From Terriglobia bacterium (GTDB lineage: Bacteria > Acidobacteriota > Terriglobia > JAJPHL01 > JAPKYU01): a DNA stretch of 64,000 nt. Shown here in pieces: positions 31,091-54,708 of this stretch (position 1 is the first letter of the stretch; the number at the start of each line of letters is the position of its first letter). The position numbers and the translations under genes are program-made. The stretch covers positions 489,322-553,321 of the forward strand of contig CBDCVK010000010.1 of NCBI GenBank assembly GCA_965223005.1, read 5' to 3'. The notes under the pieces were generated by a model, which saw nothing but the letters and a program-made list of their open reading frames with translations, did not search any database and was not told where the DNA came from.

Positions 31091-31185
31091 TGGCGGAAGG
31101 TTATGGGAATCGAACCCATCGCTGCTCGTGAGAAACAGCCACCGGCTTTGAAGGCCGGGCGAGTCACCAGACCCGATTACCTTCC
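31091..31185 (-). tRNA. selC: Selenocysteine tRNA (tRNA-Sec), anticodon UCA
   Basis: 95-nt minus-strand tRNA GGAAGGTAATCGGGTCTGGTGACTCGCCCGGCCTTCAAAGCCGGTGGCTGTTTCTCACGAGCAGCGATGGGTTCGATTCCCATAACCTTCCGCCA. It has an 8-bp acceptor stem, a 6-bp D-stem with 4-nt loop (CGGGTC/TGGT/GACTCG), a CUUCAAA anticodon loop, a long variable arm, a 5-bp T-stem with TTCGATT loop, G discriminator and encoded CCA. This is the bacterial tRNA-Sec 8/5 architecture, strongly similar to E. coli selC. Confidence 0.85.
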
Positions 31186-49548: not shown

Positions 49549-50334
49549 ATGGAAACATTTCGATTTCAGTTGCTGCGCTACGTGCCCGATCCAGTCAAGA
49601 ACGAATTTATCAACATCGGCGTGGTGCTGCTGGACGACCTCAGCCATTCGCTGGGCGTCCGCATGGCCAGTGAGGCCGACCTGCGCCGCGTGCGCTGTGT
49701 CCATCCGGGCGCCGACCTGGACTTGCTTCGTTCCTGGCAGGCCACCGTGGAAGACGAACTGGCTCGCCAGCCCGAGGCGGCAGGCGAGTGGCTGCGTTCC
49801 CTGGAGGAGGTGGCGTCCCACTCGCTTCGCTGGACCTCGCCGGCGGGTTGCCAGAGCCGGGACGCACCGGTCGCACTGCAGGAACTCTACGAACGGTTCG
49901 TGGCCTCACCGCCGCGGGCCGCTGTGGGCGTCCGTCCTGGAACCGCTGCCTGGGTGAAGCGGGAGGCCGACAGCGTATTCCGGGCTTCGGGGTTGCTGGA
50001 GCATTTCCAAAGCGGAGTTTGGGCCCAGCGCTTCACCTATCCGGGCGACCCATTCCGCATTCACTACGCCTATAGCAATGGCGCGCCTCGCTACATCCAC
50101 ATGCTCTCTCTTGAGCATTCGATACAGCAGGCCAAGGTCCTGGCATTCACCTTCGAACGCATCCAGCGCAACGGGCAGGGGGCTCTGACCTCGGTGGTGG
50201 AGCCGGAACCCCGGCCCATCCCGACGGTCCAGTTCACGCGTCAGTTGCTGGAACAGAGCGGCATTGAAGTCGTTTCACTGGACCGCATCCAGGCCTTGGT
50301 GCGGAGGGCCAGGGAGGAGCTCCGTCTCGTTTAG
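49549..50334 (+). CDS. DUF3037-like protein
   Basis: N-terminus METFRFQLLRYVPDPVKNEFINIGVVLLD matches the characteristic DUF3037 signature (..LRYvPd...gE.iNiGVVL.). Confidence 0.55.
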   Translation: METFRFQLLRYVPDPVKNEFINIGVVLLDDLSHSLGVRMASEADLRRVRCVHPGADLDLLRSWQATVEDELARQPEAAGEWLRSLEEVASHSLRWTSPAGCQSRDAPVALQELYERFVASPPRAAVGVRPGTAAWVKREADSVFRASGLLEHFQSGVWAQRFTYPGDPFRIHYAYSNGAPRYIHMLSLEHSIQQAKVLAFTFERIQRNGQGALTSVVEPEPRPIPTVQFTRQLLEQSGIEVVSLDRIQALVRRAREELRLV

Positions 50335-50463: not shown

Positions 50464-51435
50464 GTGGGTGAGGTTATTCTGCCGGCGGCGGTGCGCGTGC
50501 CGGGCTCCAGCGCCAACCTGGGGCCGGGGTTCGACGTGCTGGGCCTGGCACTGGAAATCTACCTGGAGGCGCGAGTCGACCGGTCGACACCCGGCAAACC
50601 CCCGGTGCGGCTCGCCGGTCCCCACATCGAAGGAATCTCCACCGACGATTCCAACCTGGTGCTGACCGCTTTTCGCACTGCCTTCCAGCGCACGGGCAAG
50701 CAGGCCCCCTCAGTCTGCCTGGAACTGCGCAACGGGATTCCTCTGACACGAGGATTAGGCTCCAGCGGCGCGGCCGCCGTGGCGGGAGCCACGCTTGCCA
50801 ACTACTGTGGCCGCCTGGGGTTGTCCCGAACCGACATGGTGGCGCTGGCCGCGGAACTGGAAGCCGGTCATGCGGACAACGTGGCCGCCTCCTGCCTGGG
50901 TGGTTTGGCGGTGGCCTGCCGGGGTGGCAGCGCGGATGGCGGCGCCGCGGGGGGAATTCAGGTTCTGGCCTTGCCCTGGCCGCCGGAGATCGTACCGGTG
51001 CTGGCGATTCCGCAGTTACACCTCGAAACCCAGGAGGCGCGCAGCGCGCTGCCGAACTCCTACAGCCGCGCCGACGCCGTGTTCAACCTGCAGCGGGTAG
51101 CACTGCTGGTGGGGGCACTGGCTTCCGGGCGCGCGCCCGAGCTGGCCGACGACTCGGAACTGTTCGCCGCCGCGCTCGCCGACCGCCTGCACCAGCCCTA
51201 CCGCGCCCCTCTCGTGCCGGGACTTCGCGAAGCGCTCGGGCTCCGTGTCCCCGGCCTGCTCGGCGTGGCTCTGAGCGGGGCAGGCCCTTCGCTGATTGCC
51301 TTCGTCCGGGGGGCGCCTCAGCCCACCGTGGCCGCTCTGGAGCAGCTTTACCGAGACCTCGGGCTCACAGCCGAGGTGCGGCCGGTGAAGGTAGACACCG
51401 AGGGCGCCGTCGTGATTGATTCATTGACGATTTGA
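50464..51435 (+). CDS. thrB: Homoserine kinase (GHMP kinase family)
   Basis: PGSSANLGPGFDVLGLAL and GLGSSGAAAVAG GHMP motifs. Confidence 0.85.
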   Translation: MGEVILPAAVRVPGSSANLGPGFDVLGLALEIYLEARVDRSTPGKPPVRLAGPHIEGISTDDSNLVLTAFRTAFQRTGKQAPSVCLELRNGIPLTRGLGSSGAAAVAGATLANYCGRLGLSRTDMVALAAELEAGHADNVAASCLGGLAVACRGGSADGGAAGGIQVLALPWPPEIVPVLAIPQLHLETQEARSALPNSYSRADAVFNLQRVALLVGALASGRAPELADDSELFAAALADRLHQPYRAPLVPGLREALGLRVPGLLGVALSGAGPSLIAFVRGAPQPTVAALEQLYRDLGLTAEVRPVKVDTEGAVVIDSLTI

Positions 51436-51539: not shown

Positions 51540-52850
51540 ATGAACGGTTATTTCCGCTGCGTGCGGGCGAGGTGCGGCGCCGATTTTTCCCTGAGCGAAA
51601 ACATCCACACCTGTCCACGCTGTGGCGGCCTGTTGGACGTGCTGTTCGAATTTGACCGGGACGCCGCGCAGCAGTGGCCGGCGCTGTGGCAGAAGCGCCG
51701 GGCCTCGCTCCACAGCCTGGACGCCAGCGGCATCTGGCGCTTCCGCGAACTGATCCCCTTCCTGGACGACTACGGCGCGGTGGCCACACTCGGGGAGGGG
51801 AACACGCCGCTGCTGGAGTCGCCCAGAGCGGCGCGCTTTGCCGGGGCGGAGAACCTTCGCTTCAAGCACCAGGGCTTCAACCCTACAGGCTCGTTCAAGG
51901 ACAACGGGATGACCTGCGGGGTCGCCCGGGCGCGGGCGCTGGACATGGGCCTGGTGGGCTGCGTTTCGACCGGCAACACCTCGGCTTCTATGGCCGCCTA
52001 TGCGTCCCATGCAGGGCTGCGTCCGGTGGTCTTCGTTCCGCACGGCAAGATCGCAATGGGCAAACTGGCCCAGGCGCTAGAGTATGGCGCCGTCACCTTT
52101 CAGGTAGAAGCGAACTTCGACGGGATCCTGCGACTCATTTTGCAGATAGCCGACCAGGTGGGCCTCTACCTGCTCAACTCGGTGAACCCGTTTCGTTTGG
52201 AGGGCCAGAAGCTCATCATGGCTGAGCTGCTGGAGCAGTGCGGGTGGAAAGAGCCCGATTGGATCGTTCTGCCCGGCGGCAACCTGGGCAACGTCTCCGC
52301 TTTCGGCAAGGGGCTGCGGGAACTGTTGGACCTGGGCTTGATTCGCAGGCTGCCGCGGCTGGCGGTGGTGCAGGCCGAAGGGGCTGCTCCGCTGTATCGC
52401 ATGCTGTCGGCAGGCGCGGAGCAACTCCAGCCGCTGGAGCACCCACAGTCGCTGGCGACCGCCATCCAGATCGGCGCGCCGGTCTCCTGGCCTAAGGCCG
52501 TCCGCGAATTACGGGCATCGGCGGGGATTTGCGAAATCGTTAGCGAGCAGGAGATCGCAGATGCCAAGGCGGCCATCGGGCGCGCCGGGATCGGCTGCGA
52601 GCCCGCCTCTGCCGCCAGCCTGGCCGGCGTCAAGAAACTGATTGCTTGCGGAAAAATCTCTTCCCACGAGAGCGTGGTGGCCGTGCTGACCGGCCACCTG
52701 CTGAAAGACCCCGACTACATCTTGCGCTATCACGCCGGGGAATTGGAGTGCGCCGGGCAGCTCTTGGAGAGTCGCTTCGCCAATCGACTCCGACAGGTCC
52801 CCGCTGACAGCGCCGAGCTAGAACGCGCCATCCTCTCTATAACGTCTTAG
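51540..52850 (+). CDS. thrC: Threonine synthase (PLP-dependent, with an N-terminal Cys4 zinc ribbon)
   Basis: C..C...CPRCGG zinc ribbon. PLP region FKDNGMTCGVARA (Lys-containing) and GNTSASMAAYA. Confidence 0.85.
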   Translation: MNGYFRCVRARCGADFSLSENIHTCPRCGGLLDVLFEFDRDAAQQWPALWQKRRASLHSLDASGIWRFRELIPFLDDYGAVATLGEGNTPLLESPRAARFAGAENLRFKHQGFNPTGSFKDNGMTCGVARARALDMGLVGCVSTGNTSASMAAYASHAGLRPVVFVPHGKIAMGKLAQALEYGAVTFQVEANFDGILRLILQIADQVGLYLLNSVNPFRLEGQKLIMAELLEQCGWKEPDWIVLPGGNLGNVSAFGKGLRELLDLGLIRRLPRLAVVQAEGAAPLYRMLSAGAEQLQPLEHPQSLATAIQIGAPVSWPKAVRELRASAGICEIVSEQEIADAKAAIGRAGIGCEPASAASLAGVKKLIACGKISSHESVVAVLTGHLLKDPDYILRYHAGELECAGQLLESRFANRLRQVPADSAELERAILSITS

Positions 52851-53058: not shown

Positions 53059-54084
53059 ATGGCAATCCTGACTGTATCTCGACAGTTCGGCAGCCGCGGG
53101 GATGACATTGCCCGGGAGCTGGCGCGGCGCACCGGATTCCGGCTCCTCACCCGAGAAATTGTCGAGCAGCAGATGCGCGAGCTGTGCGGCGTGGAACCGC
53201 CAGCCCTAGCCACCGAAAGTGAAGAACCGGACGTCAACGGGAGTCCTAATGGGCGTCCGGCCGCAGAAGTGACCCTCTACGCCGACCTGGTGACCACCGT
53301 GGTGGCGGACCTGGCAACGGTTGAGGATTTTGTCTTGGTGGAACTGGGCGGCCAGTGCCTGTTCCACGAGGCGTCCTGCGCAGCGCACCTGCGCGTGGTG
53401 GCGCCGCGCTCCTGGCGCGCTGCGACGGTGGCCGCTGAGCTGGCACTGGCTCCGCCCGCCGCTGCGCAACTGGTGGCTCGCCAGGACGTCGCCCAGGCGC
53501 GGTATCTTCGGATGGTTTTCAGGCGTAGCGCGGAGCGAGCGGATCTCTACCATCTGGTCCTGAACACCGCGGCGCTGGATCAGGATCACGCCATGGACCT
53601 GGCGATGTCTGCCGTGGATTCCATTCGGTTGCGCAGCGCGGGCCGGCTTTCGGCCGAGGCCGGCGAGCGCATGAAGGTGCAAAGCAAGATGCGCCTGGCC
53701 CGGCACTTTGCCGACCTGCCCGGCTCGGCCCTGCTCGAACGCGTCTCCTTTGCCCACCCCAGCGAGCGCGTCTTCGCCCGCCTGATGGACTTTTATCGCA
53801 TCGAGTGGGAGTACGAGCCGCGCACCTTCCCCATCGAGTGGAACGAGCAGGGCGTCGTGGTGGAAGCCTTCACGCCCGACTTCCACCTACCCGAACTGGG
53901 CTTGTACGTGGAATTGACCACCATGAAGCAATCCCTGGTCACCCGCAAGAACCGCAAGGTCAAGCGGCTGCGTGAGCTGCATCCGGAGGTCAACATCCGC
54001 ATCTTCTACCAGAAGGACGTCGAAGACTTGATCTTCAAGCTGGGAGCGCAGTACCAGCGCGAAGAGTTAAGCGTAGGGAGTTGA
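53059..54084 (+). CDS. Fusion of a cytidylate-kinase-like family N-domain with a C-terminal DUF559/Vsr-like (PD-(D/E)xK-fold) endonuclease-like domain
   Basis: N-terminus MAILTVSRQFGSRGDDIARELARRTGFRLLTREIV (Cytidylate_kin2-type P-loop-like). C-terminus FTPDFHLPELGLYVELTT...RKNRKVKRLRELHPEVNIRIFYQKDV follows the DUF559 pattern (vDF....l.iE.dG....D..R...L...G..v.Rf). Confidence 0.5.
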   Translation: MAILTVSRQFGSRGDDIARELARRTGFRLLTREIVEQQMRELCGVEPPALATESEEPDVNGSPNGRPAAEVTLYADLVTTVVADLATVEDFVLVELGGQCLFHEASCAAHLRVVAPRSWRAATVAAELALAPPAAAQLVARQDVAQARYLRMVFRRSAERADLYHLVLNTAALDQDHAMDLAMSAVDSIRLRSAGRLSAEAGERMKVQSKMRLARHFADLPGSALLERVSFAHPSERVFARLMDFYRIEWEYEPRTFPIEWNEQGVVVEAFTPDFHLPELGLYVELTTMKQSLVTRKNRKVKRLRELHPEVNIRIFYQKDVEDLIFKLGAQYQREELSVGS

Positions 54085-54171
54085 CAATCGCGTCCTGGCG
54101 AGTGATGGCGCGTGCCGGGTGGTCTTGGCTTTTAACTTCTCACCCTTCATTCTAAACTGTCCACTCATCCC

Positions 54172-54708
54172 ATGCATGCGGACGTGGAACGCATCCTGTT
54201 TCCCGAAGAAGAAATTCGTCGGCGCGTGGCCGAGGTGGCCGGTGAAATCTCCGCCGACTATGCCGACAAGGAGCTGACGCTGATCACCGTGCTTCGCGGC
54301 GCGCTGTTCTTCGGCGCCGACTTGGCTCGCGCCCTGCGGCCGCCTGTGCGCATGGATTTCCTGGCTGTCTCTCCTTTTCCACGCGCCGCCGACTCGGGTG
54401 TGGTCCGGATTGTCAAGGACCTGGACGAAAGCATTTCCGGAGAAGACGTCCTGCTGGTGGAGGATATCGTGGACACCGGTCTGACCCTGCGCTACCTGCT
54501 CAAGACCCTGGCAGCGCGCCAGCCCAACAGCCTGGCCGTCTGCACCCTGCTGGACAAGACGCCCCGCCGGCTGGTCGAGGTGCCGGTGCGCTACCGCTGC
54601 TTCGAAATCCCCGACCGCTTCGTAGTAGGCTACGGGCTGGACTACCAGCAGCGCTATCGCAACCTGCCCTACGTGGGGGTGCTCAAGGCGGAGGTGTTCC
54701 GCAGCTGA
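54172..54708 (+). CDS. hpt: Hypoxanthine-guanine phosphoribosyltransferase
   Basis: PRPP-binding motif VLLVEDIVDTGLTL. Confidence 0.85.
   Translation: MHADVERILFPEEEIRRRVAEVAGEISADYADKELTLITVLRGALFFGADLARALRPPVRMDFLAVSPFPRAADSGVVRIVKDLDESISGEDVLLVEDIVDTGLTLRYLLKTLAARQPNSLAVCTLLDKTPRRLVEVPVRYRCFEIPDRFVVGYGLDYQQRYRNLPYVGVLKAEVFRS

Follow-up and report, generated by a model that had tools for sequence, protein, structure and literature searches.

Organization of the locus

The window analysed here is a stretch of 64,000 nucleotides (nt) from a Terriglobia bacterium (contig CBDCVK010000010.1, positions 489,322 to 553,321 of the forward strand), and our subject is a single open reading frame (ORF) within it, at 53059..54084 on the + strand, that encodes 341 amino acids (aa) and a stop codon and is here called the CK-ENDO gene. 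Its product, which begins MAILTVSRQFGSRG, is built of an N-terminal PF13189 'cytidylate kinase-like' domain (residues 3–171; 53065..53571, +), an inter-domain linker (residues 172–228; 53572..53742, +) and a C-terminal PD-(D/E)xK domain like that of T7 endonuclease I (residues 229–330; 53743..54048, +), to which we refer as ENDO. A spacer of 87 nt (54085..54171, +) leads to hpt, the gene for hypoxanthine phosphoribosyltransferase (54172..54708, +), whose product scores 198 bits against TIGR01203 (cutoff 150). Upstream of the CK-ENDO gene lie the genes for homoserine kinase (thrB, 50464–51435) and threonine synthase (thrC, 51540–52850; TIGR00260, 245 bits). Genes of the PmbA/TldD type are also neighbours, on the opposite strand to CK-ENDO.

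Comparison with other genomes shows ENDO to be a conserved partner of Hpt, encoded next to it in the Acidobacteriota, overlapping it where ENDO stands alone, and fused to it in Chloroflexota and Thermomicrobia. An earlier note, made from the letters of this DNA alone, had the ORF and its motifs right, as it had the union of a nucleoside monophosphate (NMP) kinase-like module with a PD-(D/E)xK nuclease fold and the placement of the gene between thrC and hpt. It gave hpt as a location only. We consider the presence of this neighbour the most important observation, since the nuclease-like domain partners Hpt across phyla.

The N-terminal PF13189 domain

PF13189 (Cytidylate_kin2), the family suggested in the earlier note, is matched from end to end, over profile positions 1–175 of 176, with 80.2 bits against a gathering cutoff of 28 (E 2.8e-22). 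A profile built from the N-terminal halves of 10 homologues finds only uncharacterised structures of the same family, 3fdi from Eubacterium ventriosum (E 7e-14) and 3hdt from Clostridium symbiosum (E 5e-10). The AlphaFold2 (AF2) model of the full-length protein (mean predicted local distance difference test, pLDDT, 86.8; predicted template modelling score, pTM, 0.75) leads Foldseek to the same two entries, with E 4e-9 and target template modelling (TM) scores of 0.86–0.92, and at lower ranks to cytidine monophosphate (CMP), dephospho-CoA, shikimate and adenylate kinases. The likeness to 3fdi and 3hdt is one of family and of a P-loop type that lacks the Walker lysine ('GREFGSGG' in 3fdi); both of these are single-domain proteins, whereas the window protein adds a C-terminal domain of nuclease fold. 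The linker that joins the two domains is mostly helical in the model (helices 175–189, 191–194, 199–214 and 224–228) and poorly conserved, with variable alignment columns.

The phosphate loop, T5-V-S7-R-Q9-F-G11-S12-R13-G14-D15-D16 (53071..53106, +), is degenerate. When tested against the Walker-A pattern GxxxxGK[ST] it contains no GK[ST], and its register relative to the CMP kinases is ambiguous by one residue. Over 120 aligned rows, T5, S7, Q9, G11, S12 and G14 are nevertheless kept at 78–96%, an acidic residue (Glu or Asp) is found at position 15 in 90%, and Arg13, a Gly in both 3fdi and 3hdt, is present in 77%. The homologue alignment also reveals a conserved set of arginines, R112, R120, R148, R155 and R156, together with G97-G98-Q99 and N169. 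Arginine sets of this kind are typical of the phosphate sites of NMP kinases. Since the glycine-rich loop and the arginine cluster are kept and the Walker-A Lys and Thr are gone, we read the domain as a binder of a phosphorylated ligand, most likely a nucleotide, that would not carry out canonical phosphotransfer and would not be a cytidylate kinase.

Source annotations, on the other hand, name such proteins 'cytidylate kinase', and the protein might be a true (d)CMP kinase that has been extended at its C terminus. The JGI and NCBI names, the NMP-kinase fold and the presence of CMP kinases among the Foldseek matches speak for this possibility. We find it scarcely credible, given that the CMP kinase equivalog model TIGR02173 yields 12.3 bits against a cutoff of 102.1 and no other CMP kinase model is matched, that the GK[ST] signature is missing, and that the closest structures are the uncharacterised PF13189 proteins.

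Family and fold of the ENDO domain

ENDO passes the threshold of no Pfam or NCBIfam model. Its closest match by sequence is T7 endonuclease I (gp3; PF05367; structures 1fzr, 1m0d, 2pfj and 3cae), with E 4.6e-6 to 3cae for the single sequence and 1.9e-6 for a 20-sequence profile, and weaker matches to 2pfj, 1m0d and 1fzr. The PF05367 model gives the window protein 15.6–18.3 bits, under its gathering threshold of 29.1, and is matched at E<=1 by 15 of 20 family members (best E 1.2e-6). Among phage protein families, ENDO matches PHROG 945 'endonuclease' (9e-7) and PHROG 9019 'Holliday junction resolvase' (2e-4).

The two domains share (S/L)E on helix 1, TPDF.LP, VE on strand 3, and a basic helix followed by HPE..IR. 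The hidden Markov model (HMM) alignment pairs the T7 residues E20, D55, E65 and K67 with E236, D274, E285 and T287, respectively. E236 closes the FAHPSE motif (residues 231–236; 53749..53766, +; aligned to 2pfj), D274 belongs to the TPDF motif (residues 272–275; 53872..53883, +), and E285 and Thr287 fall in VELTTMKQSLVTRKNRK (residues 284–300; 53908..53958, +), which also carries K297, N298 and K300 on the next helix. These sequence comparisons indicate that ENDO is homologous to T7 endonuclease I, within the PD-(D/E)xK superfamily. The differences are that T7 K67 corresponds to an invariant Thr in ENDO, and that ENDO, unlike the phage enzyme, is a cellular domain of the core genome, with Hpt and sensor-type domains as linked or fused partners.

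Foldseek searches with the full-length model return matches to the N-terminal domain only, and the C-terminal domain was for this reason modelled separately. The resulting AF2 model (pLDDT 82) has the alpha-beta-beta-beta-alpha-beta core of the PD-(D/E)xK enzymes; in the full-length model the corresponding elements are helix 234–245, strands 257–261/267–271, 275–277 and 282–287, helix 291–307 and strand 313–317. All significant fold matches of the ENDO model are members of the PD-(D/E)xK superfamily. T7 endonuclease I is not among the fold-search matches of this compact monomer model, plausibly because the chains in its crystals are domain-swapped (PMC3424549).

The domain had been assigned in the earlier note to DUF559 or a Vsr-like family. 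As a statement of fold this stands, in that ENDO shows the minimal PD-(D/E)xK fold of the Vsr kind. The family assignment is rejected: neither PF04480 (DUF559) nor Vsr is matched at E<=10 by the whole protein or its C-terminal half, or at E<=1 by 20 family members. Structural alignments with Vsr (1cw0/1vsr), I-Bth0305I (3r3p), NGO0050 (3hrl), VRR-NUC (4qbn) and RAP domains give identities of 8–19%, with a different set of motifs.

Conservation and the active site

Across 119 full-length homologues the median identity to the window protein is 71% in the ENDO half and 34% in the kinase-like half, from which we conclude that ENDO is under strong purifying selection. Within a set of 404 ENDO relatives of all architectures, the FAHPSE motif retains F231 in 393, H233 in 370, S235 in 378 and E236 in 395; P273 of the TPDF motif is present in all 404, and D274 and F275 each in 403. 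In the third motif, E285, T287 and K297 are present in 402 each, Q291 in 400, N298 in 399 and K300 in 403. Altogether E236, E253, D274, E285, T287, K297, N298, K300 and D320 are kept at about 98% or more, and the wider set of F231, H233, S235, E236, W250, Y252, E253, P273, D274, F275, E285, T287, T288, Q291, K297, N298, R299, K300, Y317 and D320 at 91% or more, mostly at 97% or more.

Judged by these alignments, the acidic triad E236/D274/E285 is intact and only the lysine of the ExK motif is replaced, by Thr. This is the reverse of what the earlier note had supposed, namely that the acidic residues are partly substituted and the nuclease perhaps inactive. An inactive nuclease is not favoured, because the active-site acids are fully conserved. 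K297 and K300 belong to the helix after strand 3 (residues 291–307 of the model), and one or other of them may stand in for the lost ExK lysine as a general-base or electrostatic lysine. Other PD-(D/E)xK enzymes are known in which this lysine has moved.

It could still be argued that ENDO is non-catalytic. By analogy with PurR and PyrR, such a domain might tether Hpt or the sensor to RNA or DNA for the regulation of purine genes, or it might serve for ligand binding or dimerisation. We consider this unlikely. The near-absolute conservation of E236, E253, D274, E285 and D320 is typical of metal-dependent catalysis, and inactivated PD-(D/E)xK domains usually lose their acidic residues (PMC3424549); moreover, by their scores the Hpt partners are true HGPRTase equivalogs.

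Distribution of the fusion and linkage to hpt

The fusion of PF13189 to ENDO is a common protein. Nearly all of 120 homologues cover 89–100% of the window protein, and thousands of full-length relatives are found in the databases, either unnamed or named 'cytidylate kinase (family protein)'. When one genome per species is scanned, at least 462 genomes encode a relative, a count that may include non-fused forms as the scan patterns sit in the ENDO domain. A search for homologues with the same fusion, as proposed in the earlier note, thus finds them readily; the fusion is full-length in all of the best 80 loci, on which the locus analysis was made, and the description of it as unusual does not apply. 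These loci are almost all from Acidobacteriota (Terriglobia, Bryobacterales and Solibacteraceae), the closest being from a Terriglobia metagenome-assembled genome (MAG) with 93% identity. Three of them (L056, L057 and L065) are typical acidobacterial CK-ENDO plus hpt loci in MAGs labelled Verrucomicrobiia or Arcobacter, which are probably mis-binned or mislabelled.

Of the 80 loci, 79 have a co-oriented hpt gene downstream, at a gap of ∼5–70 nt in 76 and of up to ∼390 nt in two. No other neighbour is comparably constant: thrB and thrC precede the gene in the three closest relatives alone, and all-against-all clustering of the ORFs of the 80 loci identifies, besides hpt and shadow ORFs that overlap the two genes, no neighbour present in more than ∼23. 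A weak terminator-like hairpin, with a 6-bp stem followed by TTTTAACTTC, is seen within the spacer of the window (54114–54129, +). Co-transcription of the CK-ENDO gene with hpt is uncertain here, since the spacer is shorter in most relatives. Inspection around the gene for promoters and hairpins finds no sigma-70-like promoter and only weak hairpins, and an Rfam search at E<=1 finds no credible riboswitch or leader RNA.

The earlier note likened the fusion to nucleotide-sensing or conflict systems. That a nuclease fold should bear a nucleotide-sensing module is still plausible. An anti-phage or conflict system, with the kinase-like domain sensing nucleotides and activating a nuclease effector, is very improbable, because a search of PADLOC-DB matches the protein to no model of a defence protein and the linkage to the housekeeping gene hpt is conserved. 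The full-length fusion is present in all 80 loci with hpt as its fixed partner (79 of them), thrB, thrC, tldD and pmbA are neighbours in the window, and the 71% identity of ENDO reflects purifying selection and no diversification. A phage collection yields only marginal, partial matches, to Gordonia phage endonucleases, none of them over more than 43% of the ENDO domain, and the sole strong match in a plasmid collection is in the 918-kb replicon of Thermomicrobium roseum.

ENDO in other architectures and phyla

An ENDO profile searched against 1.84 billion cluster representatives (clusters at 50% identity) matches 2,676 clusters at E<1e-3, of which 397 are matched at E<1e-30. Among the top ∼150 representatives, 42 have the PF13189-ENDO architecture, 99 consist of ENDO only (some fragments included) and 6 are ENDO-Hpt fusions; a GAF-ENDO-Hpt protein (P0226) and one in which ENDO follows a MerR helix-turn-helix (HTH) domain (P0208) also occur. 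The position before ENDO is thus held by interchangeable domains, PF13189, GAF or MerR-HTH. Since ENDO also occurs alone and fused directly to Hpt, it is ENDO plus Hpt that forms the conserved unit, PF13189 being one of several swappable modules.

Standalone ENDO proteins of ∼114 aa account for 4,938 matches, some of which bear the JGI labels 'hypoxanthine phosphoribosyltransferase' or 'bifunctional TilS/HprT'. The standalone gene shares 4 nt with the beginning of a true HGPRTase gene in five loci. Four of the standalone loci (L081, L083, L084 and L086) have a gene for an S4-domain (Hsp15-like) protein on the opposite strand just past hpt, and, upstream, genes for large proteins that weakly match DUF5719 or Peptidase_M10.

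Covalent fusions of ENDO to Hpt come from MAGs of Chloroflexota/Dehalococcoidia, one of them recovered on three independent contigs, and from the cultured Thermomicrobium roseum, whose WP_012643103.1 is annotated only as hpt. Residues 16–117 of this protein are 63% identical to the ENDO domain of the window, and residues 130–300 are 55% identical to the Hpt. Like the Chloroflexota proteins MCC6627653.1 and MDO8530621.1, also annotated 'hypoxanthine phosphoribosyltransferase', it shares both of its domains with the two window genes; these fusions lack PF13189, and in them a single chain comprises ENDO and Hpt, which in the window are encoded by separate genes. Steczkiewicz et al. 2012 had already listed PF05367 members of cellular origin in Dehalococcoides and Thermomicrobium, and their account does not mention the link to Hpt (PMC3424549). 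In T. roseum (NC_011961.1, 368419–370265; L092, 3956–5802) the 3' end of the fusion gene overlaps mutM convergently, possibly by coincidence. The mutM gene encodes formamidopyrimidine-DNA glycosylase, which acts in base-excision repair of damaged purines.

Three further arrangements occur. A second PF13189::ENDO lineage is represented by P0160, a protein of 406 aa (L089, 4001–5827) whose loop is of the more canonical GSGG type and whose long linker is rich in Ala and Pro; its gene is followed by a Pribosyltran gene, and NDK, an adenosine-specific-kinase-like gene and the gene for formate-tetrahydrofolate ligase are nearby. The GAF-ENDO-Hpt protein P0226 is a triple fusion of 484 aa (L088, 1099–2553), encoded next to a nitroreductase gene on one contig of an organism of lower guanine-plus-cytosine content. 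In an actinobacterial locus (L087, 2149–7062), the order is gcvH, a gene for an FHA protein, an FtsR-like MerR gene, an Hpt-like gene, a gene for a BFN-domain nuclease, the MerR::ENDO gene (P0208) and GCV_T, so that MerR::ENDO is next to the BFN-domain nuclease gene and two genes from the Hpt-like gene. P0208 takes the place that the second MerR gene (Rv1830, McdR/ResR) has in the mycobacterial cluster, and the two may be related.

These architectures also bear on the possibility that ENDO is a housekeeping structure-specific DNA endonuclease, resolving Holliday junctions or branches as T7 endonuclease I does, and that its linkage and fusion to Hpt reflect co-expression only. We doubt this. 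Independent Hpt fusions and translational coupling over several phyla are hard to put down to chance, sensor domains of the GAF or NMP-kinase-like kind are not usually found at the N terminus of resolvases, and the catalytic K67 of the T7 enzyme is a Thr in essentially all members of the family.

Proposed role of ENDO with Hpt

The reading we favour is that ENDO is an active nuclease that works with Hpt and is gated by nucleotide sensing through PF13189; the probability we attach to it, from what the sequences suggest, is roughly 45%. ENDO would be a phosphodiesterase that acts on nucleic acid with Mg2+ or Mn2+, and that probably forms a dimer as T7 endonuclease I does. ENDO and Hpt would act jointly, probably as a complex, such that cleavage or binding of nucleic acid is coupled to purine salvage. 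In the lineage of the window, PF13189, like GAF elsewhere, may report nucleotide status and so gate ENDO. Such a system might act in salvage from nucleic-acid turnover, in the repair of deaminated purines or in purine-responsive regulation.

PurR and PyrR of B. subtilis and the bifunctional TilS/HprT are precedents for the coupling of a phosphoribosyltransferase domain to a module directed at nucleic acids. The parallel is one of analogy only, as ENDO has no sequence relationship to the winged helix-turn-helix domain of PurR or to the TilS domains.

Several points weigh against the reading that we favour. Adjacency and fusion establish a functional linkage and not a mechanism, and hpt is found in other conserved operons too, such as tilS-hprT-ftsH in Firmicutes. 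By alignment, the canonical catalytic lysine is missing from ENDO, with Thr287 in its place, and the similarity to T7 endonuclease I is modest, at E ∼1e-6 against the PDB and below the Pfam gathering score. In the window itself the CK-ENDO gene is parted from hpt by 87 nt and a weak hairpin. Finally, the literature searched on PF13189, on Hpt with endonuclease I and on N-terminal extensions contains no description of an ENDO family.

Neither fold is new, and acidobacterial proteins with this fusion are common among the sequences already available. What is new, within the tools and literature searched, is that ENDO is a distinct and highly conserved family with a non-canonical active site, coupled to Hpt and to swappable sensors. 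A broader proposal, which we put forward more tentatively than the reading above, is that this domain of ∼105 residues represents an unrecognised family of at least three or four phyla with Hpt as its obligate partner, and that the two form a joint module, under the control of exchangeable sensors (PF13189, GAF and MerR), in which purine salvage is coupled to the metal-dependent cleavage or the recognition of a nucleic acid.

If true, this would add a new regulatory or enzymatic layer to a textbook salvage enzyme. Should ENDO be an active nuclease or a nucleic-acid sensor that works with Hpt, nucleic-acid turnover or repair would be tied to purine salvage in abundant soil phyla, and the uncharacterised PF13189 family would gain its first functional handle, as a probable nucleotide sensor. 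Current annotation misses the domain in Acidobacteriota, in Chloroflexota/Thermomicrobia and in some Actinomycetota, where it is called 'hypothetical' or 'cytidylate kinase' or is absorbed into 'hpt'. Between the window and T. roseum it is ENDO, as the identities given above show, that is more conserved than Hpt itself. The presence of the fusion in the cultured T. roseum makes the question directly testable.

Other features of the window

Two further features of the window were recorded. An ORF of 261 aa upstream of thrB (49549–50334, +) matches DUF3037 (PF11236, E 1.6e-15) and no NCBIfam model, and has a counterpart of 89% identity in one of the related loci (L002). A tRNA-Sec gene with the anticodon TCA is found at 31091–31185 on the − strand (Rfam, 78.5 bits), which implies that the organism uses selenoproteins.

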